In this document: positions 3,451-56,624 of the stretch, piece after piece
How positions within the stretch are numbered: the stretch's first letter is position 1
Layout: every line of letters starts with the position of its first letter
Assembly (NCBI GenBank): GCA_010093815.1
Contig: ML996578.1
Length of the DNA stretch: 64,000 nt
DNA from: Pseudovirgaria hyperparasitica
Lineage: Eukaryota
Strand: one strand, 5' to 3'
The notes under the pieces: model-generated
What the model was told of the DNA's origin: nothing
Seen by the model: only the letters and a program-made list of their open reading frames with translations
Databases searched by the model: none
Made by a program: the position numbers and the translations under genes

Positions 3451-4596
3451 GCGTATATAATCGTTTGATAGTTTTCTTCCTGCATCTAGTGGGGCTATGG
3501 CATACATGGTTTTGGTATCATGGATTGATATATAAAATGGGGTATGGGAGTTTCGCAGTGCTCATGAAGGCGATCATGCATCTCCATATGTCGTTTGTAT
3601 AGCAAGCGAGCGAGTGGTTTTAAATTCATCGCATTTGTGCTGTTGGGCGCATGTATCTATAGCGGTAATACTATCAGCACATGGGAATGTTCCTTCCATA
3701 GCCTAGAAGTATGGCTCGATTGTATGCGCCAGTCCGCTTTCCTTGTACCTCTAAATCAGCTCCCTCTGTCGGTACAAGCCTCTCAACCTTCTGTTGAATA
3801 TCGTAAACCACAGTTCGCCTTCCGATTGGGATAGTCAAGGTTGTTTGAAATAATTGATGTAGCTTACATGTCACAACAGAACCTCGTTATCATTGAATAT
3901 GGTATGATATTTCGATTACCGAACAATAATATCTAGCTATTTATGAGTTGCCCCTAACTTCACACTGAAACGTTGTTTCCATCTATGAAACTAGGTGTTT
4001 GGGTCTTGTGGTCAGCTTGACGTTGAGGTGCCATAGCAGGGTTCAATCTTGTTTCGAGAAAGTAGAGCCGATATAGTTTGTTTTCCACTTGAATCAAGCA
4101 CATTCGGCCATACCAACCAGAAAGCAAGCGGTCCCGTTCGCTCCCGCCTATTTAAGCTGGTTAGGGGTGGATTAGTAGTTAGGTGGGTGACCACTAGCGA
4201 ATACCCACTGCTGAATGTTTTTGCTTTTTGCTTTATTCTAGATCCATAGGCTTGCCTCTTGATGTCTTAATCTTTCATTATTGGACGATCAATATAGCTT
4301 GAGAATTTCAACAGGCCCTTTCTGGTAGGAACATATTATAATCTTAGCTTAGCGCGCAGTCTTTGCTTCGTTCTTTCGTTGTGTATTAAGATAATTGCTT
4401 GGTATCATCATAGTCCATAACATTGGGTAGAGACACGAAAACATTCATTTTGCATTGAACAGTTCAGCTATTTAATTTCCAAAACAAATACACAAGAAGT
4501 CAAACTGATCCCGTGCCAACTCCGAACTACCCAGTGCGTCTCTTGATACTGTTTGATGCAAACAGACTAGATGTATATGTATTCTACGATGTGAAC

Positions 4597-5133
4597 TCAT
4601 AGACATATCGGCGCCACATTGACGATTCCATTCTGGTCGACGTCTGGGTCACGAATGTTGATCAGGCCGTTCTACGCTGGCGTGAGCGTTTATGGTTTCC
4701 CTGTTGCACACGTTTAGCATACCTGGTTCACGTTGTGGTTGCAGTCGTTATTGCTACCTAGGTTGAAGTTGTTGCCCTGTGAGATGGTGTAAGTATGGAT
4801 GACTCGAATGATTTTGGAAGGGCTAGAGTGTACCGAGCCGTTACCATTACCGCCGTTGCCACTGTGGTTGCCGTTGTCGTTTCCATTGCCGTTACCGATT
4901 GGGTTGCCGTTGCCATTTCCGTTGCCGTTGCCATTACCTTGAGGGTTTATTCAGTTTGGGTATTCCAACGAAAAGCTATCAGGGGACGTACCAGCGGCGT
5001 TGCCAACAATAGAGCCGATGTTCTGAATAGCCTTGTCGAGGTCATTCATCAATTCGCCCTGGGGCTGGGCCACGGGGATAGCAGCGACAGTGAATGCCAG
5101 AAGGGCAGTTGCGAAGATGGTCTTGGCGAGCAT
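4597..5133 (-). CDS. Small secreted Gly/Asn-rich protein, about 124 aa; 4 exons (5133-4992, 4937-4834, 4776-4723, 4671-4597)
   Basis: Signal peptide MLAKTIFATALLAFTVAA. Three introns with GT..branch..AG (4938-4991, 4777-4833, 4672-4722) join in frame a (GN)n tract and the C-terminus NVNQNGLINIRDPDVDQNGIVNVAPICL. Confidence 0.8.
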
Positions 5134-26958: not shown

Positions 26959-28947
26959 ATGGGCCAAGATCATTCCAGAGATTCTCAACAGCTGTCTCTA
27001 GGTATGTCAATGCTCACATCGTGATTGCGTCCCGCGACGTCGGTATATGCTGACAATGCTCCAGAGCAGCTTTCTTCCAAGTTGACGCAACGCTTCGCAC
27101 AACAGTGCTATACACCGCTAGAGCTCTATTGCTTCAACTCTGTCTTCAAATCCCTTGCAGACTCACAGTCAGGTCTCCACTATTGGAGCGAGTCTACATT
27201 ATGTCGTTTCCTCGAACTACCGGACGCCCTAAACGTAGGACCAGTACTGTTCCAGATGGCTAGTTACATCGGCGCATTTCCCTTCCCTACCCAAGCCCCA
27301 GCAATCTTAACAAATGAGGCACTTCTCAAGGTCGTTACAATATTGACGGAAAGATATGGAGCAGTTTTCAAGAGAAAGAGTCGCAGGATTTGGTTAGGAG
27401 AGATATACAGAAGTATGGCAGTCTACGATCGAGGATTGCAAGCAGCATTACATGGAGAGAAAAAAAATGTAGCAGAAATGTCCTCTACAAATCAGACTGA
27501 GGTCTCAATGATCAAATCAAATGCTGAGAAGCGTGGCTCCAGTTCTACGCATAGTAACGACCTGAAGTTCGCAATAGATAAGACAGAAGACAGCGAAGAT
27601 GTTTCAGAAGACGACGATCTCGTCCTCGCAGCCTTCGATTCTATGGACCTTAACGATACTTTCAAACACGGAGAAGTAGCAAACATCCACCATTCGATTA
27701 TACCGAGCGACAACCTTCTCAAATTACTTGAGCTGCTTCTTCTATCGGCACCGATGGAACCACATGACAATCTATCCACTTTCGCACTACAGCTGTCGGA
27801 CAAGAGAATCGTAGACATTAGAGCCACTGCAAATAGTGTCTTGTCAGCATTTAGCATCGAGAAAAATCCCGGCGTCACATTCAAGCACTTTAATGTCGTG
27901 ATCTCGAGCGCACTTCCGTATTTGTTTGATGGGCTACGGCCCCTATTCGAACATTTCCTTTTTGCAAAAGATTTTGACCTTTCGCGAAAAAAGGGCGAGG
28001 TATCGTCATCTCCACAGTCAAGTTCACAGCACTCAATATCCGTAGACAAAAGGGTCTCCATTCCAGAACCGGTCCTTCAAACCGAAGGTGATATTATGAA
28101 TCTTAGTACGCTCAGCCAACTCTCGTTTATCATTAAGGGAAACAACCTCTTCAGAAGGCTCCGCCTTCTTTATTCAGGCAACACTAATGGGTTCAGCATG
28201 GGCAGCTTCGAAAAGTCAGTCTTTAATTGGCGTGCTCCGTCGATATTGTTGGTTTCAGGGACTCTTCTTGGTGATCCGTTAAGTGCTCGAGAGCGTGCTA
28301 TGCATGATTCTCTGCCGCACAGTCGGCTGAAAAGTAGTCTCACAGAGACGAGCAAGTCAACCTCTACGACGGTCACCTATGGCGCATACATCTCACAGCC
28401 ATGGAAGCAAACCCACAAATCTTGCTTTGGCGACTCTGGTACTGTTCTATTCCAGATCGCTCCGACTCATGACGTCTTCGGGCCGTCTAAGTCTACGTCA
28501 GATTACGTATACTTCAACCGGGCACCTACACATCCTTCCGGTCTGGGTTTTGGCTCATCTATACCGAGCCAAGGTCGTGCCAATATGCATTCATCCAACC
28601 CTGTTCCCATACCTCTTGGGCCAGTCTCGCTGCATCTTGACGATGGTTTAGAGTTCGCGACATTCACGCATCTGAGCGAGGGTGGTGGGTCATTCTATCC
28701 CTCTCAGCTGCCAATCAGGAAGGCCAGAAGCTGGCAGGATCGCTTTGAGGTCGAGTCTCTAGAGGTATGGGGCTGTGGTGGTGACGAGGAGGCGGATGCT
28801 CAAAGAAGACAATGGGCATGGGAAGAACGCGAAGCTGAGGCTCGTAGGAAGATCAATTTAGGAACAGGTGATGTCGAAATGGACAAAGAATTGCTGCGAA
28901 TGGCAGGCCTGATAGGTGCGAACCAGAGCGGAGGCAGTATGGCTTAA
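26959..28947 (+). CDS. rtc5: Restriction of telomere capping protein 5 (TLDc domain); 2 exons
   Basis: N-terminal MGQDHS myristoylation-like start, [14 protein letters not shown], TLDc motifs LLYSG..GFSMGSF and EVWGCG, C-terminal [10 protein letters not shown]. Confidence 0.9.
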
Positions 28948-28961
28948 ATTCATCAGAGCCT

Positions 28962-31900
28962 TTACACGATCTTATATGAAGTATCCCGATCTATCTTATT
29001 GCTTTTCCTACTCAGCCACGCCCTACGTGTCACAATGAACTTCTTTTGAAAGCCTATGATAAGAGCAAGGAGTGTGGTAAATCCTGCTAAAGGGCCTGAT
29101 ATCTTCCAGAAATAGGCAGTCGTCTTTGGGTTGTCTGCATCGCCAGTGATATCCCGCATATTCATCCCGTAATACGACGTCATGAAAGACAACGGAAGCT
29201 AATCAATTACATTAGCAAGCTGCGCAGTGTCAAATGACTAAGCGAACATACGTAAATGGAAGAAAGAATCGTAAATATCATCACCACCCTGCCCTGACGT
29301 GCAGCGGCAACACTGAGGGAGAGAGAGTGTCTCGTCTGCGCACTAGTCTCCTCAGCCTGGACCCATGCAGCGTGTGACTCTCGGAGGTTCGCACGCTTCT
29401 GTCGAAGATCGAGAAGTTGAAGGAGCTATACGTTGTCAGTGAAATCATTCTTGATCAAACTGTCAAAGACGTGTTCACATCTTGCTCAATAGCATCTGCG
29501 TCGGAACGTAAGCCCTGGAACTGCGTCTCAAAGGACGATAGTTTCATCTTAGTTTCCTCCAATATCTCAGTGCCAATAGACAAGTGAAATTCTCCTTCCT
29601 TGTCTTTCATGAGTGCCGTCGACACCTTCTCGACTACGTTTTTTTGAGTCTGAATGATCTCAACTAGGCCTTGCATTTCATCTTTTAGGGTGTTCGCGTC
29701 AAGAACGAGTGATAGCTCAAAATTCTCTTTATTGGTGTCGGCGGTGAAATTGTTTGTGGCCTTCTTCAGGTCTTCATTACGGAAGGATGCTAGTGCAGTC
29801 ATATGCTGTTGGCGCTTGACATGATCGTTAGTAGTGAGAACAGTCTCGGTGGGCAAAATGTGACTTACGAGTTCTCCTACAGCTTTTCGATACAATTGTA
29901 TGAACAGGAGATCGGTGTGGCGTACCCGTGACAACAATGCGGTCGTGGTTCTATCTATGATGAGGGCACATAAGTCATAGACTGAAGACATGACGGTCGA
30001 TGGATGATCAATCCTCGATAGATGGTCCAGGACTGTGGTTTCAACATCAGCTGCTTGTGAGAGCTCAATGTTGTTCGCTTCAAGGGGCTTGCGAGGAAAG
30101 AATGTCACGATCGTCCCTGGGAGAACGTTTAGTAGTCATCAGCAGGCCAAGATTCACTCGTGAAACTCCTAACTCACTGTTATCTGTGATGACCAGCCAC
30201 AGTTGCTGAACTATCAGTGTCTTCATACCAGTGTCAGACATTGCTGTCTGCTTTGGTAGTATCTGGGATGCAAGGCGACTGGACTGCATAGAACTAGTGG
30301 GATATCGGTACTGATCCAGTAGCAACGGGAGGTGTACAGGTGGCTCGGCGGTAATCGACAGACTTGTATGTCTCGTGTCAGGATTTGTTGCAGCATTCCT
30401 ATAAGCCTCTGTAACTTGCTCGGGTGTATCTTCAGATGTTAGGATGTCTATCGCTTGTTGCCGCTGCGTCAGAGACGCGACAGTGTCCCAGTGAAGAAAT
30501 GGCATAACAAGTACCAATCCTTGTTCAGTGGAAGTCGATTCCGTTGGTTGGGTGCGCAATTTGCTGATCGAAGCAAAGTCTGGGCGTATATGCCACGAAC
30601 CCGGATACAGGTTTTCGGTCGAGTGTACATGGTGGGACCAGAAAGCGTCAAAGTGTGTCTTGGAACATATTCCAGATCCGTTCTTCATCAACGAAGACAT
30701 GATATCCTGACATGACTTGTTAATCTGGCTCAAGTAATGAAGTATCATACCTCTAACATACCTCGATCCATATGCCGTGATTGGCACTGCCATGATGCCA
30801 CATGAACTCAACCTCTTGTTTGAGACCAGTTGGCTCGTAAGAGTTCAAGGATGTGCATTGGATATTTGGAAGATCGCTCAAGAGTAGCATACTGGATCGA
30901 ACCTGAGTTTGAACCTCCAGATCACTGTTTCTGCTCTCCAGAGTGAACTTGATCGAATGCGAGGCAATCTTTTGTGGCTCGTGTAAGGGCAACTGAGCTT
31001 CAAGAGCTTTCTCTGACTCTTGTCCGAGTTTGGAGCGTAGTCTATCAGGTATAGTAAGCTGTTGACCACCTTTAAGTAGTAGAAAAGCCCTGTCAATCAT
31101 GAGGCGGAGCTCCTCTTGATTTGAAACAATAGCACTGGAGCTGGAGGTGCAAGAATCGCCTCGAAAATGATATTGAAGCTCATTCGGAGTATCCAGCGAT
31201 ACCTGGGGCCAACTGAATTTCTGCAGCTAGCATTAGAGCCAATCATAAGATTTTAGGGGAAGGCGCTTTGAGCGTACTGAGTCGGGTACCGTGCAACTAA
31301 TCGTAATATACAAATGTGCGATCTTGTTAAACGTGGCTTCATGTTCACAAAGCTTCTTGAATGCCTCAACATTTTCCGTGCAGCTAGTATGTGCAAGATT
31401 CAAGTTCTTCGACAATGCTGTCGACGAGCTCACACGCGTGAGATTGGGAACATCTACATCCCTTCGATCAGTCAATATCATTCTAGGAAGATATATATGG
31501 TACCTATCAATACTATCGCTCTTTTTGCTTTTCTATCAGGTGGTTCCGCAGATAACGCAGCTTTTACGACTAAACCTCCCACTCCGAAGGCCAGAAAAAG
31601 CCATCTGCGATCCTGTAACTAGATAAACAGGTGAGTTGAAGCTTGGTAAACGTGCTGTACAGTCGACTTACCCGCGTGTTTCGCTTCAGCACTTCAGCTA
31701 TCTGATCGAGGAGGGTTTCACGACTCCTCAGGACATCCGACAACTGTTCAGCGGCGTGATCAAATACAAAAATGCTTGCGGATGGGAATCTTTCGTGTAC
31801 AGTATGCACGAATGCGTTTGTGGAAGCTAGTTTCGACTCAGATGCTGGCGCTATGAGCAAGCTGTGTCAAGGAGACCATCAGCAAAGTGCTTCATGAATG

Positions 31901-31986
31901 GTATTTGGCAAATAAAGACAGAAAACCTGGTTTACGTACATAGGCTCTAGGTCGTCCTTCCCTTCCCATCTCCAATCTAGTGACAT
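28962..31986 (-). CDS. Fusion of a degenerate SesB-like alpha/beta-hydrolase domain and a fungal CorA-like membrane domain; about 8 exons
   Basis: N-terminal RWLFLAFGVGGLVVKAAL...AIVLIDVP. Central LVLVMPFLHWDT, LDQYRY, LIVQQLWL, TFFP motifs of fungal CorA-like proteins. C-terminal coiled coil, then TM-LPLSFMTSYYGMN-TM. Confidence 0.75.
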
Positions 31987-32405
31987 GCTCACACAGCGTG
32001 TGCTCAGTACTCAGGTCTCGGGAGACAAACACAGCTAAGTCTGCATCATGTACGGAGAGTGGCTCGTGTTGTGTTTATGAGTTTTAGCGCAAAGGCTGGG
32101 ACAGATTTGGGCCTTTTCCATTGTGGAGGCTTAGCTGTCTGACCACATGCCATGTCCTTAGGTTTTGTAGGTGGCGTTCGTTCACAGCTTGTGCTTATGG
32201 ATGTGTGGGTGTGCAGCTTCTTCATTGCTTGCCTCGTATTGACGGTGGTTATATACAAGGGTAAGGTATTCTATGGCAACTGATGGATCCGCATTCATGC
32301 ATCCTGGTCATATGGCGGCGGGGCGCTCCCCTCGCCCCATAAGTAGGTGAGCAAGCCTCATCCCAACCATCAAGCCTGTCTTGTTCAGCTTTTACAGAAA
32401 CCGTC

Positions 32406-35400
32406 ATGTCTATCGACACGGACTCTAAGTCTGACTCCTCTCCGATCGAACAGGCAAGGCAAGCTGAATTACCTTTGCCTGACATATCATGCCGTCACTG
32501 ACTGAGCTATTCTTTCTCTATCTAGTGAAGGCCTACTATCGCTTACAGTCGACTCAAGAGGATGGAATGCGGTTCGAGACATATGTAGGAAGAGGCTGGA
32601 GCCAGGAGACTTCCAAGTTGTCTCTAACCTGAAATCAATTGAAGAATTGATGAGGTTCGTGGACAGTTTACGTATAAGATACCAAGATACTAGCAAGGCT
32701 TTCGAATTAGCAAGGCTTGATGCATGCTTCTACCAACTGCGGACTTTCCATTCCAGCATTGATGTATTTATCCACATCAAGCCGGCCATATTGGCGCCGC
32801 TGTGGGGCAGCTTAAAACTGTGCATTGATGTACAGCCCTACCTTATATTTATCTGCGCAACTCAAAGACGCTAACACTTGTTAGCTCATACATACCACGG
32901 ATCAGGTTCTTCAATTGATTGTAGATATGTTTGATGAGATAAATCAAACGTTGCCTCGAATAGCTACGTACATGGAGGTGTATAATGAAGCACCGTCACT
33001 ACTGGAGCCGGCACAAGAAAGTAGGACATACTCTAAAATTTACATACAGTTTACCTGACATTACTCCAGTGTATATATTAATTGCGGAATTTGCTTGTCA
33101 GGTTATCTGGTTTTTTCGCCGTAATCCGCTCAGTAAGTTCTCTACCTTGACCTCCTTCGATCATAATTCTGCACATTGGCGCTTACATTGTCTAGAAAAC
33201 CTTTTAGTCACGACCTGGAAGCCGTTCAAGCCTGAACTCGACAAGACAGTGTCGAAGATAAGACAAAAGGGTCGTCAGATCGAGCTCGAAGCTCAAACAC
33301 TCAGTCGGCAACACGATGCTGTCCGCTATGAAGAGCTCAAGCACATTCTCAGTTCCTTAGAAGTCAAAAATCGCGTCACGCTACCATGCCACTATCTACC
33401 TCTGGCACGGAATCCTACTCTTGTCGGTCGAAATGATCTCCTAGATGCTGCCCATAATCACCTATGCTCCGCTCTTGACGAACAACGTATTGTTTCTTTC
33501 TACGGCTTAGGTGGGGTCGGAAAGACCCAGATCAGCATTGAATATGTATATCGGTACCTGGATGGCTACTCAGCCGTTTTCTGGCTCTCAGCAGATTCGG
33601 TAGTCAAGATGAGCCAAGATGTCCGAGGAGCCCTTGAGAAATTGGGAGCAATCAAGTCTAATGGGCCGGAAAATGACCAGCAGTGCCAGAACATATTCAG
33701 TAATTGGCTCAAAGATACTGGTTAGTGTTACTCCGACGTTTCCTACCACTGCTGATATTTTATCAGAAGAGAAATGGCTTATCGTTTTCGATAATGCTGA
33801 TGATCTGAAGGTTCTTCAAGGATATTGGCCTACTTCACGTCGTGGTCATATCATCCTTACCAGTAGAGACCCGGCCTCAGCAAGGTTTCCAACAAACAGT
33901 AAAGCACTCAGAGGTCTCCAAGTCCTGCCATTATCCGACGCCGTAGGAGCAGATATGCTTCTCGGTGTACTGTCTCACAAGCAAGACCCTTCTGATGAAA
34001 ATCACCAAGTTCATACCATGAACGACATCGAAATCGCAAAGGATCTTGTAGCGCAGCTTGGGGGCCTCCCTTTAGCAATCATACAGATTGCTAATTACAT
34101 CTTGGAAGCAGAATGCGAACTTGACGAGTTTAGCGAAATATTCTCCGACTTCCGCAATCGCAGCTCGCTTTTAGATGAGGATGCCAGCAATACAAACATG
34201 TCTTACCCTCATTCTCTTGGTACAGTTTGGGATATCTCGATGACTAGGATCGAAAAGTCAAACAAGAACTCTTTTCACATGATACAGATAATGTCGTTCT
34301 TTGATCCGGATGGTATACCCGAAACTCTTCTCGATAATTCTGATGTGCAGCGACCCGGCGATGCGTTACCGGCCTTAAAGTATCTCCAGAGCAAGTTGCT
34401 GTTCCTCAACGCAACTCGTCCTCTCTTGCAGCAGTCTATGATCAATAAGAACAAAGTGCAGCGATCACTAGTGATGCATCGCTTAGTGGGTGCAATCACA
34501 CACAAGAATATCACACACGCCGATAGACAGACGAGATTTGATGAAGCATTAGAACTTCTTTATCGAGTATACCCCCAGTTAACATTACAAAAGGCATCTT
34601 TGAACGAACAATGGCCTCGTTGTCGTCTATATGTGCCACAAGTCCTGGCTCTGGAAAGATCATATAGAGAATCTCAGGAACCCCTAAAACCCAGGGCAAA
34701 ATTTGCTACAGTTCTATCAAATGCGGCATGGTTTCTTTACGAGAACGGTTTGCCCGGTCAGGCAATGCAAATACTTCCAACCGCAAAGGCAGTGGCAGAA
34801 GCTACTCTGAAAGGTAACGAATTTGCTGCAGTTACCATATACAGGACATATGGTGGTATCCATATTGACGCAAACAAACCACAAATATCTTTAGAGATGT
34901 GGACTCGCCAAATGAACATAATGAAGGAAATAGGCTCCGAGCTTTCGGTTGCTCATGGCTTGAGCAACATGGCCTTGGCAGAACTTGCCATTGGTAATTA
35001 CGATGACTCCAGACGTGAGCTAAACAAGGCCACCGAGATTCGCTCTAAATATCCTGGACAGGCGGAAAGCTACAAAGCCTTGACGCTGGATGTCGAAGGC
35101 ATGCTAGATAATGCTCAAGGAAAGTATCAGTCTGCCATCAACAACCTTTCAGCTGCCATCAAGCTGTATGATGAGGAGCTAGGAGTGGGGAACTACTTGA
35201 CTGCGTTGTAAGTGCTAACTCCAGTAAGTATCGTGAAAAGCTCTAATAAAACAGCGCCAACCACACTCTGGGCAACGTGTATGAGCGAATGGGCCACTTG
35301 GAAGAAGCATTTCGGCTCCATTCTTTATCTTTATCTGTCCGAGAGGATATCCTTGGCGAGACTTATCGAACTGCAGGATCATTACACAAGGTCGCATGGC

Positions 35401-35727
35401 ATCTTCATATGCGAGATGACCATGTTGGCGCGGAGTATGTTTTACACCACATCCGATAAAGCTCCGTGACCTTCACATCTAAACTCTCATAGGAGGCTGC
35501 TTTACAAAGCGTTGAAGATATACGCGTCGGCTTACGAAGGTAAAGGTGGTATTGGTAGATCAAGCTATCTGATGAGTTTAGTTTTAGCTCAGCTTGGGAA
35601 GGAGGAGGATGCCATAAACACGAAGGCACTGGCAGAGAAGATACGAGAGGAGCTCAGTGGCATTCCTCCAGGCCATGATGATAATCTCAAATCATACGAC
35701 AACCTTGTCGGTATGCAAGACCGGTGA
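32406..35727 (+). CDS. Fungal NLR: helical N-terminal domain (Goodbye-like) + NB-ARC + TPR; multi-exon
   Basis: DVFIHIKPAILAPLWGSLKL N-domain, LVGR, GLGGVGKT (Walker A), WLIVFDNADD (Walker B), ILTSRD, LGGLPLAI, MHRLV, then TPR-like helices ending SYDNLV. Confidence 0.9.
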
Positions 35728-36603: not shown

Positions 36604-36871
36604 AGACATGTTCTTGGTGTGCATAGGCGAGAATCATGCGATATATCGGGAGAGCGCATAGATACAGCCAGCACTTGCGATACCAATTCACTAGCTACCA
36701 ATCCAGATTCGCATTGACATTTCCAGAATCTACTTCTCTATCCGTGACATTGTCCTACTCAACCTCCCGGCTGCAAGACTAAGAATTCAGTGAAACCAAT
36801 TCGCAGTCCAGTCCAGAGATGCAAACAAGTACACCTCGCGCTCACAATAACGGATTTTTATCCCACCCAGT

Positions 36872-37949
36872 CATGACCAACGCAACACTTTCCTTCATCT
36901 CCGATCTCCCTTTGTATACCAATGTCAAACCGTATGCCATATCGACAGACACACAAGTCCCAGAGGAAGCACGTTCGAATATCAAATTCGAAGAGCGAAG
37001 CACTATCCCCATAACCGATGTCAGGACATTGCCACATGATAATCTATCATACTCGCAGCAAGGGTTCCGGTTTTTCGCACACCCGTCGTCGGCAACGTAT
37101 GAGTTCGGGTTTGATGACGCCTCTGTTGCAACGTACTGCAGAAAACTTGTGGAACTGGTCAGAAAGGAATTCATGACTGAACATGTGTTTTGCTACGATC
37201 TGAAGGTAACATCAGTAGCGTTAGCTGTAGACAAATTATTTTTTGACGCTCCGAAGGTTCGTGATAGTGAAACAAAGACGACTGAATATGGTGCTAGCAC
37301 TGATCTCAGCGCTGGCAATATTGCACCGCCGGTCTATGGTGTTCATATTGGTGCGTATGCGACGGACAGCATGACAGTGTAGCTAGATGCTGAAGTCCCA
37401 CTGTTACAGACCACACCGAAACTTCAGGACCACAACGCATACGTCGGCATTTGACGAATGTCGAAGTCGAGCGGTTCTTGAATGGTGGGTTCCGAGCACG
37501 CATTGTGAAGTAAGCGGACTGAGATGCCGGTGTGCTCAGTTGAAATGCTCACATGGCCAGTGTCTGGCGACCTCTCTATCGGCAGGTTGAAACGTGTCCT
37601 CTTGCATTGTGTGATGCAAGCTCTGTTCCAGCAAGCGATTTGCTCGCAGCAGATATGGTAACGTCAAATTATGTCTTCGACCTCTATTACACAAAATATA
37701 GTGCCAACCATAAGTGGTACTGGTTAAGTTTCCAGACCCCTGAGGAAGTTGCCGTCTTCGTACAGTACGACTCTAATGAACCGAGAGAGTCAGATACAGT
37801 ATCAAGTAAGTGTTGCTGGAATACCTAAATGTCATATTTCTGACAAAGCAGCGTGTCCCCACGCCGCGATTCGACAAAGGGACAGTGGCACCTGTGGTAC
37901 GAAACGCGAGAGTGTGGATGCAAGGCTCATCGTTTTCACACTCGAATGA
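36872..37949 (+). CDS. AsaB/CmcJ-like (GA4-desaturase family) Fe(II)/2-oxoglutarate hydroxylase/desaturase; multi-exon (alternative ATG at 36819)
   Basis: PLY..VKPY, ITDVR, QGF, VHI|D (HxD), VWRPL, PLALCD, HKWYWLS.QTPEEV, CPHAA, RESVDAR. Confidence 0.85.
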
Positions 37950-41698: not shown

Positions 41699-44600
41699 TC
41701 AAACCCTTTCTCCTTTGGGTCCCTTCTGAATCAATCTCGCTTTCAGATCTTCAACTGCATCGCCCCAGGCACACATCTCCCCCAGCGCCTTCAGCTTGTC
41801 GCCAACCTTAGATCCTACGAAATCGGTCATCGTGTTCTCCTTATATCTCTCGCCATAAATCACATCTGCTTTAACATTCACAGTGCTTTCGAATATGGTC
41901 TCGTTCGCACTGACCCCGACTTCGAACGTGACGCGGACTTTAGTGCGTAGGGAACCCAGCACAAGCATCACAGAAACTGCAGTATGCTCATCAGACAAGA
42001 TGCTCTCTTCACAGATACCAACCACCTCCAGACTCCGGACCCCTTCTGACAGAGCCAAAGCCATCTGCCAACCGGTCTTGATAGTGGTAAGTAGACTAGG
42101 GATAGATGTGGAGCTTTGGGTAATCGAGTGGAGATGAGCGCGGAGCAATTGTAAGAAAAATCGTTTGCTAGTTGTAAGAGGTCGTGGAGATGGAGTCGAG
42201 TCGCCGATGTATGTTAGTGACATTGAGGAAGCTTGACTATGATCGGCATGAGGCGAGAAAGCAAGTGGATGGAAATAGAGCTCAAGGTCTGAGGCATAAG
42301 TCATTGTCAATGTTGGTGCAGGGACAGTGTTGGCAGAGGTGATAGACCATCCATACTTTGTCTCGAGCGCGGAAACCCTGTCTTTAAACTCATGTCAGCT
42401 CAAATTGTTTGCGAAGATGTTTAGGGACTTACTTTTGAGTGCGTTCACTTCACTCGCAGACCAGCCGCGGCATTCTTCACGTACACGTTCTGCTTCTTGA
42501 ATTTCACTCAAGCAATCAACCTTGCGTTCTTTTACAGCATCAATAGTTGCTTCCGTCTGCATTTGCGCTTCCTGTAATTGGAACAACATACGCCTTTTCT
42601 GCTCAAGTTCGGACTCTACAGCCACTAGTCTGTCACGCGTCGCATCAAGTTCCTCCTTGTCGCAGCTCAATAGCTCATCAGCCCGCTGCTGAAGTTGCTG
42701 CTCCTCTGTACGTAGCTTCTTGTAGCGAATAGACAGTGTAGGCATAGTGGAATCGAGTATTTCTTCTTGCTTCTGCAAGACTGCGTCATCTAGATCTAGC
42801 TCCCTACTAGTCTTGAGGAGAGCAGTCTTGAGATCGCGCAGCAGACTACTTCGCCAATTGTACCAGACTTCCTTGCTGTTGAGTCTAGAAAAAGTCTTCA
42901 TGTTCTTGAGCTGATTGCTCATGACGTAGCGTTGATCTGGAGGAGCAGACAGGAACTCTTTGAATAGGGGCGGGGTCTCCTCATCTACACTGGCTTCAAT
43001 GCCGTTTACTATGTCCTTGCCTTGGGAAATGTGCTGCTTGAGTTGATAGCATGCATGCTGGTACATCTCATATTCAGGGGCCGTGCACGCGGCAGCGACG
43101 ACACAGCTCGCGAGGCTAGGTTTTTCATCCTGATCTCCAAGATCACGACTTGTCCTCTTATTTAGAAATGCGGATGGAGCTGCGGTATGGCGTCGCTTCG
43201 TTGTCGTAAGATCCATGAACTTAATATTGGTCATATCGAGGAAATCCTGGAGCTGGATTCGCTCCGGTTCTGGCTGTTTAGCAGTATCGACAGAGCTGTT
43301 ATCTTGAGGTCCGTGAGGATCCTGATCTTCCAAGATTTCGAATCGTGCCTGCTTGCTTGGACTAATGCTTTTCCTCGGTGTCCGCTTGTTTGGGGTAGGA
43401 GCCCTTGATCGCGCTGCATTTTCCGTCTGAGCGAATGACTTCCTCGGTGTTGCACGCTTGGCAGGGGATGGTTGAGCCTGCTTCCTTGGAGTAGACAATG
43501 CTTTCATAGAATTGAAGAGAGCTGCGGTGCTCCTCAACGTTGGCTCCTCTGAGAACTCCTCTGAAGCACTTGAATCTTCCGCCTCTACACTGAGCGTAGA
43601 CGGTTTTGGTATTTTCCTTGTTGGCGATGGAGTCTTCTCAGAGCCAACTGAGTCGGCACCGAAACGTACTGTCTTTGGTGTCGGAGTTGATGTGTCCTTG
43701 TCTTTAGCTTCAGAAAAGTCACCAAAGGCTACCAAAACATCTAGCTTGGTTGGATCATTCTTCAAATCGTCTGACGTAGTCGGAGGTAAGCTGAGCAAAC
43801 TTTTCCTGGCAGTTCGCCGTGGAGACTGCTGTGCTTTGTTAGAGTGAGACTTAGTGGGCGAGCCCAAGCTTGCCCGGGATCGGCCAGGGCTTCTCTTCGT
43901 CACATTGGTCGAAATGTGGGACTCAACAGTGGATGTTTTAGCAGGACTCTTGACTGGAGTTACAGGCTTCGGAGACGCCTTTATAATCTCTCCCAGAACA
44001 GCAGTCAACTCCATGGACAATTCCTCGTTGTCGTCTCCACTCTCATTGCCCAGCTTATCATCGTGTTCTTGGGCCATCGTCGGTTTAATTCCACCGCCAA
44101 CCACCATTGTAAAGTCCATGGTCTCATCTACAAGAGACGTATTGATGCTACTGCGTCTGTCTTCCAAGCCTTTGAGCGAGCCAGGCTGCTGTATACCGCC
44201 TAGCGCCATAGTGAATTCCATTGTTTCGTCTTCAACAATAGAAGTGTCCGCGGGAGATGATCGGATTCTTAAGCTACTACGTCGAGATTGTTTGTTAGCC
44301 GGACTACCTTCTTCTGTGGCACCCTGATGAGGAAGAGCGGATGAGCGACGCCGTTTCAGTGATGCTCTCCGATTAGGCTGGGGGTGTGGCTCTGGCTTTT
44401 GGATACACCCTATTGCGGTAGTGAACTCCATCGTTGCGTCTCCGTCATCCGAGACCAGGTCGTTTTCTGATCGGATAATACCGCCGATGGCACGAGTGAT
44501 GTCCATGCTCATGTCCTCCGCGTCGCCACTGGGCATCTCCTCGACCTTGCCAGTCAATCTATGCCGAGACCGATCGCTACTGTCTGTGGGAAACGGATTC

Positions 44601-45597
44601 ACGTTCTCTTGATCGAACTTAGCCGTCGTGTCCTTCGACGGATTCAGTGTTCCAGCTGACTTTTGACACCAAGGCTTGAAAGCAGCTGTGACTTCATCAC
44701 CAGCTATTTCCATTGACATGTCTCCGTTCTCGTCAAAATCTAGTCTTTGTGTTCCGGCATAGGTGCTTGCTTGTTTCAAAGCGGCATCAAGCCGTGCACT
44801 TGAGCCTGTAGATTCTCCAGAGCAGCTGCCAATTGATGCAGACGTGTTCTCTTCCCCTTCAATAAAAGCTGTCGGTGCCTGCACGTCGGCGTCTTCTTCT
44901 TCGTCCCCGCTGTACGAGCTCTCGTCCATTGGGCTGGAAGAAAAGACGTCTTCCGGATTGTTGAAGTCTAATGGTGGTATTCCCGAGCTTCTTCGTCGTT
45001 TCTTCTGATGAGCATCGCGTTGATTTCCAGGTGACTCTTTTATGATAGGCTCGTCTAATTGCTCTTGGGGTGTAGATGGTGGCTCCACGTCAGAGAGTTG
45101 CGCTGCCGCATTTTCCTGCGGTGAGCGATTAGGCGCTGCAGAGTTCCGTCGGGTCGAACTCGAGGATGAGGAGGAATTGGTCGCGTTTTCGATGTACTCT
45201 ATCACGTCCCATGTATGTAGAGTAGCTTCTGGCGCAAAAGAGACGCGTCGATTCGCTGTGAATCCATTTAGTAAACTATTCATAGGTTTACTTCTACTAA
45301 TATAGACGTACCGAGAGACTTGCGCCTGGCCTCACGACGTTTCTTCTCATCTTCCTTGCTGGGGAGAATGCCACTTGGGATGAACGCAGACTGTGACTGT
45401 GATCAACGTAGGTTCCATGAACACCAGAGTCAGTATACCTTGCGCCTATTCCCTGTATTATCCTTGAGTGGTGCATCATTCAAGCCTCCTGGTCCGATAC
45501 TCTTGCTGCGCGTCTTGCGACCACTTGCTTTCTTGAGCGGCGATAAACCCGATTGCGAAACTTGAATACCCTCGGCGATATTCTCTTTGTCATCCAT
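41699..45597 (-). CDS. spc105: Kinetochore scaffold Spc105/Spc7/KNL1; 4 exons
   Basis: N-terminal DKEN, RRVSFAPEATLHTW PP1-binding motif, several MELT-like repeats (MDIT, MEFT, MDFT, MELT), IQLQDFLDMTNIKF Spc7 domain, coiled coil. Confidence 0.95.
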
Positions 45598-46667: not shown

Positions 46668-47296
46668 GCATGATTCTCTGGGGTTTGGTTTCTACATGGG
46701 ACAGTGTGGGCATGCATGACAGTATGCTGGAAAAGCATCATGTAGCTTAGCAAAAATATATTGCGCATGGGCTGCAAATGTCAATTCTTCTCAACACTCG
46801 AAAATACGGTAGACGAGGTGCAACACAACGGGGATGCTCATTTTTATCTGGAGTACGATGCCCTGCTACATGTCCGCAATGTTTCAATATACAGGTTTCC
46901 CTCGCTTATTAAAGTTGAATTCCTGCTGAGATTTAGGTAGGCTGGTCACGTCTCGTAGTATGAGTAGCGGCTAGAGTTTAGAAATTCATGATGTTTTGGA
47001 GGTTTCTAAGGTTATTCATTGCACGTGCCGAGGTTTCGAAACTCAGAAATGGCATTAGTACCGGAATAACAGCGTCACGGGTTAATTGAACAGACATATT
47101 CTGACCTGTATCTTATCAATTCGAGATACAGAGCGAACATGGCCAGCATGACCATCCCTCTTTTGGTATAGTGTACGCGCTAAGATGTGATTATGATTAT
47201 CCATAGTAGGTATTAGGTAAGGTATCTCATTCTCAATCTCTTAGATCCTTCATCAAACATTATATCAAATTCACCCAACAACAAACTGCAACATTC

Positions 47297-50200
47297 ATGG
47301 CACGTCGAGATATCATTGACTTGACGAATGATGATAAAACGAGTGTCACCTCGGATGAAGGCAGATTACCTCACAGGCTGTCCCGACGAGCACATCGTGC
47401 AAGTCAAAGTAGAGACCCGCCGCTCGCATCAGTATCCACAACTCCGAAGCGCAAAAGGAAGGCACATCAATTACATGATCACTTAACCATATCTAGTGGT
47501 GATGACACGAAGATCGTGTCTGCGGATGACAGTCGACCAGCATCGGGAGTGCCCACTCGTGTTAAATCGCATGAGTTGCAGCCTGCTCGGAAAAAAACCC
47601 GCACGCCGTCTGACCAGCCCAGCCCGACTAAAGGTCAAGACCTAGCAGCGAGTACTAAGAGACAACCTGGGCTCACCACGACGCTACATGAAAGCATAAA
47701 CAGTGCGAAGACTTCTAATCGCAGAATTGGCGTTGTAAGCAATGAAACAGTCCTGGAGAATGATGCAGCACCGATTGCCAGCACAGACTCATCAACACGC
47801 CTCAGGGATGCTACAGTGAATCGTTCAAAGGTTTCAGAGGCCGAGGAAGTAGGTATAGCCAGAATCGACACGGTAAACCCCTCCAAGCACCTCCGGAACG
47901 CTGTTGCGAATCCTCTAAGAGTCTCGGAGGCTGCGGCCGCTCGGTTAGCTGATACTGCAATGGTATACTCATCAAGACTTATCAACTACGATGACCGGAT
48001 CAGTCACAAGACATCCATCCTGAGCGGAGAAGGAGGCCCCAGGGTCGTGGAGGAGGATGCAACAAGTCCCAAGGAAGTGACCCAAGTGAGGAGCTTTGAT
48101 GCTGTTGACACGGCCAACGCAGATTCGAACCAGGGTGCCCATGAAGTAGAGTCTACTGAGCAAAGACGTACCGTACCAATAGTAAACCGTAATCATAAAT
48201 CCTTTGATCAACATTCTGAATGGTTCGAGCTGATGACAATCAGACACAGACAGGGGCGTGGAAGAAGAGGCAGTTTCTGAGATTGTGCGGCGCCATGTTC
48301 AAAAGTGTCTCAAAGACCGAGAGGCACAACTTTCGGTAAGTCAGTGACTGCTCTGCAATGATGAGTCGTCTCGTCTGACGTGAATAAAAGTCCCTACTCG
48401 AGCACCAACGAAAAGCCATCAAACGATGCAATGATAGATGGGTCGATAAAGAAAACCCCTTTCTAAAGCTGATACTTGCTAGCCGATCATCGGCAAATAT
48501 CGAAAATTCGAAGGTCACCAGCTTTGTGCATAAATCCTGCGATCAAAAACGTGTACCTCACCATGGCATTCCCAGCATGATTTCTGAGATCAGGCCTAGT
48601 GGCACGCCAAAGTACTCTCACTATACCGAGATATCAAGCAACATTCTAGCTGAGAATAAACATGCTTTACTCAGCATCCCTTTTTTCGAAAACGATGAGC
48701 AGACGGATGAAGTGCAGAATGAGTTGACTAAACAGCTACCAGTACTCAACCGCGACAGGGACTCGCGTAACATCTCAAAAGGTCGGGGAATAACATGGTC
48801 TCGTTATGCGGAAGATATATTACGAGAGTCGCAGTGTTCTTGGTCCGACGTGCTGCGATATTTTAAAGAGCCAAATCTACTAGAGAGCTTCAGTGATCTA
48901 CCCACAATGGTGGGTGTGAAAGTCAGAGATCGAAACATCTATGCTCCACCAACTGAATTACACATCGGGGAGATCGACTCGACCTGGGAAGACCTGCTCA
49001 ATGACAAGGTACCTGAGATGACCAAGCAAAGTCTAGTCACAGCAGCTCTTGTAAGCGCCGCTTTCTGGAAAGAGACAAAATTCAGCTTGTTTGAACTAGC
49101 ACGCCAATGGTTCATAGACTGGTCAACACGTGAGGACTTAGCGAACAAAAAAGTTCCCAAGGAGGACCTCCTTTGCGAAATCTGCAAGATGTAGGTGATA
49201 TGATTCAGCTACTGAAAGTTGACTAACTCGTGCACGTCAAGACATGACTGCCCATATCACGGCGTTTACGAAGACGGCGATATCCTCGACAACAAACTAG
49301 ACTGCGATGAGGAGATCTTGCTCAAACCTGGACAGCACAACCAGCGATTCAGATTCACGGCTCTTAAGAAGCCCCCTCTAGAGCAAGGAGTCCCGGCATT
49401 GAGCTCACGTGGCTGGGCAGTTCGCTGGATGGAACAGGGTACTGGACGGCCGAAGCCGAAGATGGGAAATGCACACGAACCCCAGCAGACGCAGATATTC
49501 AGACCCTGTGACCATGATGGGCCGTGTGAGACTGCGGCGGAGTGCTCGTGTTTCGAGTTGAAGATTCCTTGCGAGAAGACTTGCGGATGCAACGCGCAGT
49601 GTCTACGCCGGTTCCCTGGGTGCGACTGTAAACGCGAAGGAAGGCCCTGCTTGCACGTCGACATCGCCACTCAGCGCCGCACAGTCTGCCTGTGTCTACA
49701 ATTGAATCGTGAGTGTGATCCTGACACATGCGGAAGCTGTGGTGTTCGAGAAGTCTTGGACCCAGTCAACCGTCATTGCGAGCTTCCACCACCGGTATGT
49801 GGGAATTGTGCTATTCAGCGACGTATGCGGAAGCACACGTTAATAGGGAACTCGGATGTCGAAGGATTTGGTCTCTTTGCTGTTGAGGAGATCAAGAAGG
49901 ATGAGCTCATCGGAGAATACACCGGAGAACTGATAACCATTGACGAATTTGACAGACGGTTCCAGGTCACCGTCCACAGAAATTATTCCTACGGTTTCGA
50001 ACTACATAGAGGTGTGTTTCACGATTCTCCTGATCTGCTCTCGCTCCTAACACCGCTGTACTAGACATAGTCATCGACAGCACCCGCGCCGGTAACAAAA
50101 TGCGCTTCATCAACAGCGCCCAGTGGGACGACACCGACAAACCCAAGCACAAACACAAAGCCACCGCCAAACGCACCGCAAACTGTTACCCCAGAATCAA

Positions 50201-50675
50201 AGCCTGCAACACCGTCTGCCGCATCGGCATCTACGCGGCCCGCCCCATACACGTCCACGAAGAGCTGCTCTACAACTACGGCGGCAAATTCCACGGCGCC
50301 ACGCCGTCCAAAACCGTCTCTTCGGCCACGAAACGTGCCCGCTCCACCACTTCGAGCAGTGTCAACGACGACGACGACGATGATGATGATGATGATGAAG
50401 ATGGTGATGATGGCGATAGCAACGAAAATGGCAACTTGAATACCACCACAGCAAACCCCCAAAAAGTACGAGCCTACAAAACCGTACCCCCAACGCACTA
50501 CGACAACCCATCGGCGCCCTCGTCATCGTCATCATCCGAGTATCACGCGACCACCGAGGCCGAGTCACAAGCCACGGGCGATCACGGAGGGAGCGCGAGG
50601 GGTGAGGGTCGGAGAGCGCAGGGAAGATCGCGGGCACGAGCGAGGGCAGGAGCCAGTGGGACGGGTGCAAGATAA
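47297..50675 (+). CDS. kmt6: E(z)/EZH2-like H3K27 methyltransferase (KMT6/SET-7): CXC + SET domain; multi-exon
   Basis: CXC domain PCDHDGPC...CEKTCGC...FPGCDC...RECDPDTC...CGNCAIQ followed by SET motifs GFGLFA, GEYTGELI, GNKMRFIN, EELLYNYG. Confidence 0.85.
50365..50412 (+). repeat. (GAC)n(GAT)n trinucleotide tract encoding poly-Asp in the kmt6 tail
   Basis: gacgacgacgacgatgatgatgatgatgatgaagatggtgatgat. Confidence 0.85.
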
Positions 50676-55555: not shown

Positions 55556-56624
55556 CTATTTCCTCCTCTGGCTCATCCCTAGAATCTGGACCATGCGGAT
55601 GAAGATGTTGATAAAGTCGAGCTCAAGGCTGATGCTCTCCTTGACTGGATCTCTGGGCACCATACCCTGCTCTGCAAGACGAGCGTGGTGCAACACCTTC
55701 TGCACGTCATACAGAGTGAAGCCACCAAAGACAGCTAGTCCGCCGTACAACCAGATATTCTCAGTCCACATCAGGGTACGGGCAGCAGTGGCGGGAACAA
55801 CGAGAGGGGCAAGACCGGAAAGAGCGACAATTGCCACGCCCGCGAGAAGAGGTCCACCAAGGTAAAGGTACTTTTCTTGCTTAGCAGTGGCGCCAACGAA
55901 AGCAATACTACCCATCATTCCAACAGTATAGAGACCAGCGCGAGCGAGGAGGGCGGGCGACATAAACAAGAGCGGAGAAAGGAGAGCTGCTTGAACGACG
56001 TTGAAGCCGGCCCACAGTGCATATTTCTGAACATAGCTATGACGTGTTAGTTTGCGAATGCATGGAAGATTATGCTTAGACTTACTTGTCGGGACTAGTA
56101 GCCATACAGCCATACATCGTGCCAATGGAACCAACAAGGCCCAATCCCATAACGAGCCAGGGGTTGGCAGACATAAGTCGGTAGCTCCACGCACTGCGGT
56201 GAAGAGCGCTCGCGGCGACACCGATTATGCCGAGACCAAGACCGGTGTGCATGAACGTCTCATTCAGGTAGCTGCGCTCATAATGAGGCATACCGCCATC
56301 TTCTCTTGTTTCGCGGTTGAAGACCAGGTTGATAGCCAGAAGAGTTCCGCCGAAGATGCCTGCGCCGTAGAGTAGCCTTTGCTTCATGTCGCCAGATGCT
56401 TGAAGGGAAGGGATGCCTTGGGTCTGGTAGCTTCTTCGAAACGTTTGACGGAATACATTCTGCGACTTTGACACGGATGGGATGGTGCGGATTTGCGAGA
56501 GGATCGGTTGCGACTTTGCGAGTGGTAGGTTGTGAAGGTAGCGAAACGAGTTTGTTGTGGCCTTTGACGGCGCCTGTTTGAGGGCAGTCGTAATGGCAAA
56601 CGGACGCTTCAGCATGAACGCCAT
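55556..56624 (-). CDS. Bax inhibitor-1 family protein, mitochondrial GHITM/MICS1 type; 2 exons
   Basis: Presequence MAFMLKRPF, YLYLGGPLLAG, LYDVQKVL, ISLELDFINIFIRMVQIL. Confidence 0.92.

Follow-up and report, generated by a model that had tools for sequence, protein, structure and literature searches.

Fungal genomes encode tens to hundreds of NLRs. To our knowledge, few executioners acting downstream of these receptors have been described, namely HeLo/HELLP proteins, gasdermins, and the patatin and SesB lipases. In clusters such as nwd2/het-S, PNT1/HELLP, and protease/gasdermin, the NLR gene adjoins the gene of a membrane-active protein, as outlined in passages of PMC12881547. These passages also describe NLRs with an integrated N-terminal domain of the Goodbye/HeLo type as an “all-in-one” alternative to two-gene clusters. 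SesB-like domains and ankyrin repeats are listed among the commonest NLR domains in sections of PMC12258605 and PMC4986451.

Channels of the CorA/MIT superfamily (Thermotoga maritima CorA, PDB codes 2iub, 4i0u, and 3jcf; CmaX, PDB code 7nh9) share a cytoplasmic domain, a stalk helix, and two C-terminal helices. In type III CRISPR signaling, bacterial proteins of the CorA family serve as membrane effectors (PMC10600005 and PMC12255297, in excerpts); the SAM-AMP-activated members represent an immune output at the membrane that is opened by a signal to the cytoplasmic domain (PMC10600005, in excerpts). In the fungus Morchella importuna, vegetative incompatibility has been linked to the polymorphic CorA-like gene mimpvic32 (PF01544, 773 amino acids, 8 introns). 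This gene is one of two polymorphic candidates, and a mapping candidate only (PMC8940278).

Here, we describe a locus of the rust-hyperparasitic fungus Pseudovirgaria hyperparasitica at which genes for an NLR and a CorA-like membrane protein diverge from a short spacer. None of the papers returned by our literature searches presented CorA-like proteins as partners of NLRs. The reading that we favor, at even odds, is that the pair consists of two mechanistically self-contained neighbors, both from fast-evolving fungal accessory families and probably co-regulated through a short bidirectional promoter.

Organization and transcription of the gene pair

The window, i.e. the whole stretch of DNA that was analyzed, comprises 64,000 nucleotides of contig ML996578.1 (assembly GCA_010093815.1). 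The head-to-head arrangement proposed from the sequence-only reading, with ATG codons at 31986 (minus) and 32406 (plus) and a spacer of about 420 nt, was confirmed, the spacer measuring 419 nt.

28962–31986, minus strand: CorA-like gene (10 exons, 836 amino acids; ATG at 31986, stop codon ends at 28962)
31987–32405, no strand: divergent spacer (419 nt from ATG to ATG)
32406–35727, plus strand: NLR gene (8 exons, 978 amino acids; ATG at 32406, stop codon ends at 35727)

The gene models were built by hand and then compared with contigs that lack introns, taken from two public runs (X1 and X2) of one sample and one study. The kind of these runs is unrecorded, and the transcript origin of the contigs was inferred from the missing introns. 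Besides one further joint, fifteen listed splice joints exhibit GT/GC..AG ends on the correct strand, and the joints support eight of the nine introns of the CorA-like gene and all seven introns of the NLR gene.

31986–31940, 31861–31672, 31618–31504, 31453–31278, 31220–30762, minus strand: CorA-like exons 1–5 (high to low)
30706–30178, 30116–29869, 29814–29479, 29425–29252, 29198–28962, minus strand: CorA-like exons 6–10 (high to low)
32406–32458, 32526–32829, 32885–33020, 33070–33132, plus strand: NLR exons 1–4
33196–33720, 33767–35207, 35255–35434, 35493–35727, plus strand: NLR exons 5–8

Both genes are complete and occur as spliced transcripts in the same sample. The RNA-supported models correct the two public ones. 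The annotated CorA-like protein (P0001, EJ05DRAFT_513296, 818 amino acids) is identical to our 836-residue model over the first 815 residues, and the annotated NLR (P0003, EJ05DRAFT_513298, 841 amino acids) is truncated at 35211 and lacks the two 3′ exons that the contigs join at 35207/35255 and 35434/35493 in the 978-residue model.

Contigs of the minus-strand gene extend to 32247 and 32249, and those of the plus-strand gene start near 32407 and 32429, which leaves ∼160 nt between the 5′ ends of the two transcripts. This distance fits co-regulation, is equally expected of a functional pair, and was counted against the self-contained reading.

The pair is flanked by a TLDc gene on one side (stop codon at 28947) and by an unknown ORF and genes for an MFS protein and an O-methyltransferase on the other. 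The proposed “non-housekeeping block” is only partly right, the remaining genes of the window being mostly of the housekeeping type (V-ATPase, ClpX-like, adenylate kinase, Spc7, and Ezh2-like). A comparison of the two annotated proteins by BLASTP (best E value 2.0) revealed neither a common motif nor a homologous domain, in line with the sequence-only reading, in which no amyloid-type motif was seen.

Structure of the CorA-like protein

The C-terminal two-thirds of the minus-strand gene product is organized as a CorA-type module, which is preceded by a hydrolase-like front domain.

28962–30986, minus strand: CorA-type module (residues ∼255–836; cytoplasmic domain, long stalk helix, TM1, YGMN, TM2)
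29160–29171, minus strand: YGMN motif (residues 768–771)
31278–31861, minus strand: degenerate SesB-like/DUF676-type α/β-hydrolase-like domain (residues ∼16–175)

The assignment as a CorA-like two-helix membrane protein, already made from the sequence, is supported alike by Pfam, the YGMN motif, and the fold match. Residues 716–805 match the Pfam family CorA (PF01544) with 40.5 bits (cut-off 27; E value 2.6e-10). In the structural model (mean pLDDT 78.4), the C-terminal helices span residues 668–769 and 785–814, the first of which contains a hydrophobic stretch (residues 746–766), and YGMN follows TM1. Foldseek aligned the model to T. maritima CorA chains with E values of 3.6e-7 to 3e-5, a probability of 1.00, and TM scores (by target) of 0.44–0.55, and a profile of the family matched CorA in the PDB (5.9e-5). 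As judged from the model, the protein possesses the CorA fold with its α/β/α cytoplasmic domain and long stalk helix. In contrast to the CorA channels, to which it shows only ∼10% identity, it carries ∼250 extra N-terminal residues with a dead hydrolase-like domain and is part of an expanded fungal family whose N termini are modular.

None of the Pfam families, DUF676 included, matched the front domain. However, our own profile, built from the DUF676 N-terminal domains of nine family relatives, matched residues 30–104 with 25.9 bits (E value 8.6e-8 among 151 proteins). The suspected SesB-like pseudo-hydrolase is probably real, albeit weakly recognizable. Its model displays a β-α-β pattern at low confidence (pLDDT 50–70), a value that we counted against the self-contained reading. 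At the nucleophile site, the P. hyperparasitica protein features F-G-V-G where relatives have H-S-x-G; the nucleophilic serine of the esterase motif G-x-S-x-G is absent, and the aligned residue is a glycine. The closest relative (P0004, 40% identity) likewise has G-V-G-G at this position. The domain is probably related to the SesB and SesB-like lipase domains of NLRs (Dyrka et al. 2014; PMC4986451, in excerpts) by an α/β-hydrolase-type homology that runs via DUF676-bearing relatives. Whereas the SesB domains described there belong to NLRs, the domain found here is joined to a membrane channel module instead of a NOD and lacks the catalytic serine.

The CorA-like family

A phmmer search returned 1060 representatives (E ≤ 1e-3) that share ∼28% identity. 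The matches cover the conserved part of the protein (∼residues 310–810), whereas the N termini vary. Among the 82 longest relatives, which were scanned against Pfam, 75 contain PF01544, 20 contain ankyrin repeats, 9 contain DUF676 or DUF7379, and 1 contains NACHT together with ankyrin repeats. With our own profile, the SesB-like/DUF676-type domain was detected in 33 of 151 proteins (9 of which had trained the profile). Of the 28 proteins covering the nucleophile site, 19 have a serine there and 9 a different residue (the P. hyperparasitica protein and 8 relatives), and the hydrolase serine was lost repeatedly within the family. Two Atlas clusters, with 100 and 949 members, comprise uncharacterized ascomycete proteins of the “DUF676 + CorA” and “ankyrin + CorA” types, which exhibit the same architecture and conserved module; in the cluster of 100 members, DUF676 occurs in 87% and CorA in 76%. 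The P. hyperparasitica protein differs from the “DUF676 + CorA” proteins in that Pfam DUF676 fails to detect its front domain and in that its nucleophile, like that of 8 relatives, is not a serine.

The NACHT-containing relative, P0055, is a single uninterrupted polypeptide that joins NACHT (including Walker A) to ankyrin repeats and the CorA-like module, demonstrating that a STAND module is coupled to such a CorA-like module somewhere. This fusion and the Morchella vegetative incompatibility candidate were both counted against the self-contained reading.

Other searches added little. Word-based homologue searches gave two matches for the CorA-like protein, one for the NLR, and four for the 41-sequence alignment of the family, and a metagenome scan with the CorA-like alignment recovered only three contigs (L001–L003, 1.4–4.8 kb). 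On one of them, L003, a weak Abhydrolase_6 ORF lies upstream of the match to the CorA-like alignment, and none of the 10 ORFs scanned encodes a NOD domain. Our literature searches yielded no paper on DUF676 with CorA and no relevant one on CorA with sesB.

Judging from sequence comparison, the large ascomycete family of which the CorA-like gene is a member has N-terminal domains (SesB-like, ankyrin, and once NACHT) that correspond to the NLR toolkit; together with the P0055 fusion, they speak for an NLR connection of the family as a whole. These domains also bear on the alternative that the minus-strand gene encodes a CorA/ZntB-type Mg/Co/Zn transporter with a long, decayed N-terminal extension, which plays no part in non-self recognition or death and lies next to the NLR gene by chance. 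The protein retains the complete CorA fold and YGMN, the Atlas neighbors carry the source name [quoted passage not shown] the genes flanking the pair are mostly housekeeping genes, and a CorA-like gene induced in mycorrhizal root tips of Amanita is listed as a transporter in the relevant part of PMC6231487, all of which would suit a plain cation transporter. However, the family is very large and divergent, and its modular N termini (ankyrin, DUF676, and NACHT) are unusual for housekeeping transporters. In addition, G-M-N is relaxed across the 41-sequence alignment (G in 33, M in 25, and N in 32 sequences) and lost in the NACHT-ankyrin fusion, and in Endocarpon the expansion of the CorA family was accompanied by that of the HET, ankyrin, and P-loop families, according to a section of PMC3897900. 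We therefore regard the transporter explanation as improbable.

The NB-ARC-TPR receptor

The plus-strand gene encodes an intact NB-ARC-TPR receptor, as had been read from the sequence; the assignment rests on the Pfam matches to NB-ARC, DUF7779, and TPR_12 together with the Walker motifs.

32737–33308, plus strand: DUF7708 N-terminal helical domain (P0003 residues 89–223; Pfam 8.8e-15, 55.3 bits)
33435–34521, plus strand: NB-ARC (residues 266–493; Pfam 3.6e-11) followed by DUF7779 (residues 521–612; Pfam 4e-18)
34705–35724, plus strand: TPR sensor region (Pfam TPR_12, 4.4e-11, and TPR_10)

Walker A reads GLGGVGKT and Walker B LIVFDNADD. The protein thereby combines the features of a fungal NLR, i.e. 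an NB-ARC domain with Walker A and B, a winged-helix DUF7779 domain, C-terminal TPRs, and an N-terminal accessory domain. The TPR region contains no detectable tandem DNA repeat. The Atlas clusters nearest to the N-terminal domain mix DUF7708, Goodbye, and NACHT_N, at scores below 0.9 that make this a lead only; Pfam matched neither Goodbye nor NACHT_N on P0003 at E values of up to 10. An Atlas structure search with the N-terminal domain gave TM scores of at most 0.37, to unrelated helical proteins only, a PDB sequence search with the NLR returned no match, and our literature search found no paper on DUF7708. By possessing its own N-terminal DUF7708 domain, the receptor corresponds to the “all-in-one” design outlined in PMC12881547 (in excerpts).

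Relationship between the two proteins

If the two proteins are self-contained neighbors, binding of a ligand by the TPRs would lead to oligomerization of the NLR, which would then signal via its own N-terminal helical domain. For the CorA-like family, the whole CorA-type module would represent the output, and the variable N-terminal domain would provide the input in cis, be it a DUF676/SesB-like hydrolase, ankyrin repeats, or, rarely, NACHT with ankyrin repeats. Having lost its serine, the hydrolase-like domain of the P. hyperparasitica protein would bind a lipid or a partner instead of cleaving it and may thereby open or close a putative pentameric pore, which would conduct cations and possibly contribute to cell death.

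Alternatively, the pair might represent a two-gene sensor-executioner module, the possibility raised in the sequence-only reading. The activated NLR oligomer would then use DUF7708 to bind the CorA-like protein at its pseudo-hydrolase or its cytoplasmic domain, causing the pore to open, ions to leak, and the cell to die. Such a pair would be the split form of the NACHT-ankyrin-CorA fusion, whose single chain argues for this possibility, as do the head-to-head arrangement with closely spaced transcript ends, the splicing of both genes in the same sample, and the SesB-like and ankyrin N-terminal domains of the family, which rank among the commonest in NLRs (see above). Support by analogy comes from the CorA effectors of type III CRISPR systems and from the Morchella candidate. 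However, the CRISPR effectors are bacterial, activated by a small molecule, and not linked to an NLR, the parallel extending to the logic alone (PMC10600005, in excerpts), and mimpvic32 is similar to the P. hyperparasitica gene in size and intron number, a likeness taken from its description (PMC8940278, in part). When the supplementary file of that study was searched by term, no NACHT, NB-ARC, or ankyrin entry was returned; some of the genes in rows 1–17 of the 23-gene table are unannotated.

The pair resembles the nwd2/het-S-type clusters in that an NLR gene adjoins the gene of a membrane-active protein, but in these known fungal clusters the signal passes via a shared amyloid motif or a protease (PMC12881547, in excerpts), whereas here neither a shared amyloid motif nor a protease domain is present and the receptor already has an N-terminal domain of its own. 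Furthermore, a NOD domain is found in only 1 of the 82 relatives scanned, and that one is of the NACHT-ankyrin and not of the NB-ARC-TPR type. By a rough, uncomputed estimate, one chance adjacency per genome of two multi-copy accessory families is not unlikely. Direct coupling of the two proteins is therefore doubtful in our view. We think it even less probable that the CorA-like module constitutes an unrecognized membrane-permeabilizing output of fungal STAND/NLR immunity, fused to NACHT and ankyrin repeats in P0055 and to SesB-like or ankyrin domains elsewhere, and here split from its receptor under one bidirectional promoter, as the eukaryotic counterpart of the type III CRISPR CorA effectors.

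Implications

The gain is modest and consists of two corrected gene models, a family with N-terminal domains of the NLR toolkit, and the repeated loss of the hydrolase serine within it. Because of these domains and this loss, it would be reasonable to examine the CorA-like family in cell-death assays, irrespective of any coupling within the neighboring pair. Should a sensor-executioner relationship prove true, a CorA-type pore acting as executioner would represent a new class of effector, parallel to CRISPR-CorA signaling in bacteria.

Gene models and the shared spacer

Two genes that encode proteins and carry short introns of fungal type occupy 28962–35727; their models rest on splice signals and on frames read from stop to stop. 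When single exons were used in word-based searches, the public annotation of each gene was retrieved, assigned by the source to Pseudovirgaria hyperparasitica.

Genes of the divergent pair
28962–31986, minus strand: CorA-like gene; public protein P0001, 818 amino acids, EJ05DRAFT_513296
32406–35727, plus strand: NLR gene; public protein P0003, 841 amino acids, EJ05DRAFT_513298

The models were compared with contigs from two public runs of the same sample and study, for which the kind of run is unrecorded. Because these contigs skip 15 listed intervals and one unlisted interval with splice-type ends (GT..AG, in one case GC..AG) on the gene-matching strand, we took them as transcript assemblies. 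They support all seven introns of the plus gene and, in the minus gene, eight of nine; the remaining one is probably the contig joint absent from the listing. In the NLR gene, contigs from each of the two runs support intron 1 (32459–32525, 67 nt), which is of the GC..AG type.

The public models of both proteins require correction. P0003 runs into an intron and ends at 35211, whereas the contigs splice 35207 to 35255 and 35434 to 35493, giving an NLR of 978 amino acids with two more exons and 138 additional TPR residues (window 35207–35727). The last small intron of P0001 (C terminus ...TPIR) is not seen in the contigs, which are continuous over 28900–29198 to the stop at 28962; the corrected CorA-like protein has 836 amino acids and a longer basic tail. 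At its 3′ end, the CorA-like gene (stop 28962) converges with a TLDc gene (stop 28947) across a gap of 14 nt (window 27025–28962). A single 7.7-kb contig spans both genes, so their transcript 3′ ends probably overlap.

The head-to-head arrangement proposed by the sequence-only reading is thus borne out by both models and their contig-supported introns, and its spacer of about 420 nt measures 419 nt from ATG to ATG. Contigs of the minus gene extend to 32247 and 32249, and those of the plus gene start at ∼32407 and ∼32429 (inferred from the 50 and 28 letters ahead of the first joint), which leaves at most ∼160 nt between the 5′ ends. In these contigs from one sample, the short gap looks like a bidirectional promoter. 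Because the NLR contigs start at or just past the proposed ATG at 32406, this codon is a candidate start only.

Domain organization of the NLR

An intact NB-ARC-TPR gene had been claimed for the plus strand, and the Pfam matches agree (TPR_12 and TPR_10 were also seen exon by exon).

Pfam domains of the NLR
P0003 residues 89–223: DUF7708, 8.8e-15
P0003 residues 266–493: NB-ARC, 3.6e-11
P0003 residues 521–612: DUF7779, 4e-18
Plus gene: TPR_12 and TPR_10

Walker A (GLGGVGKT) and Walker B (LIVFDNADD) read intact in the sequence, and no DNA tandem repeats were found in the TPR region. The Atlas clusters nearest to residues 1–260 are mixed DUF7708/Goodbye/NACHT_N (scores 0.87–0.89, a lead only); Pfam gave no Goodbye match for the NLR, and no mention of DUF7708 was found in the literature searched. 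Goodbye-like domains are counted among pore-forming domains in parts of PMC12258605, and a section of PMC12881547 presents Goodbye/HeLo-type N-terminal domains integrated in the NLR as an “all-in-one” alternative to two-gene clusters.

A CorA-type module behind a probable dead hydrolase-like domain

Residues 716–805 of the CorA-like protein match Pfam CorA with 40.5 bits (cut-off 27), and YGMN is found at residues 768–771. An AlphaFold2 model from a 41-sequence alignment (mean pLDDT 78.4, pTM 0.66), of high confidence from residue ∼240 on, matched full-length Thermotoga maritima CorA chains in Foldseek (E 3.6e-7 to 3e-5, TM by target 0.44–0.55) as well as CmaX; a sequence search of the PDB with a family profile also recovers these chains (5.9e-5).

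The first ∼230 residues have no Pfam match and show a β-α-β pattern at low confidence (pLDDT 50–70). A profile built from the DUF676 regions of nine family relatives matches residues 30–104 with 25.9 bits (E 8.6e-8 among 151 proteins). There, F-G-V-G aligns with H-S-x-G of the relatives, which indicates that glycine has replaced the nucleophile serine; G-V-G-G occupies this site in P0004, the closest relative (40% identity). A profile match, if a weak one, with a lost serine bears out the description as a SesB-like pseudo-hydrolase plus CorA-like protein, and the domain reading of both genes is confirmed and sharpened. According to portions of PMC12258605 and PMC4986451, SesB-like domains rank first or near the top among NLR N-domains by frequency.

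The wider CorA-like family

In a phmmer search of P0001 against 1.84 billion representatives, 1060 proteins pass E ≤ 1e-3, of which 293 reach 1e-10 and 16 reach 1e-30; they have residues ∼310–810 in common and N termini of varying length. The Pfam scan covered 82 of the 150 listed matches, the 68 left out all being shorter than 700 amino acids. PF01544 (CorA, E ≤ 1e-4) was found in 75 of the 82, ankyrin repeats in 20, DUF676 or DUF7379 in nine, and NPHP3_N/NACHT plus ankyrin in one, P0055 (1379 amino acids). This unbroken chain carries Walker A, ankyrin repeats, the cytoplasmic motifs of the family, and two C-terminal hydrophobic helices, without G-M-N in the pore loop; its architecture is of the NLR type, and a membrane module forms its C terminus. 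Across the 41-sequence alignment, G is kept in 33 rows, M in 25, and N in 32.

With our own profile, the SesB-like domain was detected in 33 of 151 proteins (nine of which had trained it). The nucleophile is serine in 19 of 28 site-covering proteins and another residue in nine, the window's own included. Such losses recur in the family, mostly as serine to glycine (P0011, P0012, P0016, P0018, P0020, P0044, P0105, and P0125). The nearest Atlas neighbors, both ascomycete clusters, are “Ankyrin repeat protein family” (949 members, CorA 91%) and “DUF676 domain-containing” (100 members, DUF676 87%, CorA 76%). On L003, a short metagenome contig, a CorA-like match (4433–4759) is preceded on the same strand, ∼1.4 kb upstream, by a weak Abhydrolase_6 ORF (2628–3038, E 3.2e-4), probably another hydrolase–CorA gene. 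No description of a DUF676–CorA architecture was found in the literature searched.

Relationship between the two genes

At about even chance, we favor autonomous neighbors that are probably co-regulated, in which the dead hydrolase-like domain would gate the CorA-like module in cis. Coupling of the NLR to the CorA-like protein, as the sequence-only reading had it, is unproven, and a true trans-acting pair appears unlikely. The divergent orientation and short inter-transcript gap would suit such a pair, as would the overlap of the family's N-domains with the NLR toolkit and the habit of fungal NLRs to adjoin their effectors, which is described in part of PMC12881547. Yet the two proteins have no common motif (best BLASTP E 2.0), and the NLR owns an N-terminal domain. 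P0055 is the sole NACHT–ankyrin–CorA fusion among the 82 scanned relatives; the fusion speaks for a pair, its rarity and a NOD of a different type against. Morchella importuna has a CorA-like candidate vic gene (excerpts of PMC8940278), which also counts in favor; on the other side, NACHT, NB-ARC, ankyrin, and P-loop drew no entry in a term search of the supplementary file. In its Table 7, rows 1–17 were examined, and several genes carry no annotation.

The genomic surroundings also argue against a trans pair. The supposed non-housekeeping block holds for an unknown ORF, an MFS gene, and an O-methyltransferase near the pair, but not for the rest of the window, which is housekeeping (Abp2, adenylate kinase, ClpX-like, branching enzyme, V-ATPase, M28 peptidase, TLDc, Spc7, Ezh2-like, and Bax inhibitor). 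Right downstream of the NLR, a 199-codon open frame (36783–37382, plus strand) belongs to no Pfam family.

Ordinary housekeeping genes in the window
41702–45331, minus strand: Spc7/Knl1 kinetochore gene with MELT repeats
47210–50672, plus strand: Ezh2-like SET/CXC gene
55559–56224, minus strand: Bax-inhibitor-1 gene

An ordinary cation transporter that happens to adjoin an unrelated NLR is as unlikely an account as the trans-acting pair.

CorA has bacterial precedent as an immune effector (PMC10600005 and PMC12255297), and no NLR–CorA pair was found described in the literature searched (NLR, NACHT, heterokaryon incompatibility, and allorecognition contexts). The more interesting lead lies at the level of the family, a large ascomycete expansion in which CorA-type membrane modules are wired to NLR-style input domains.
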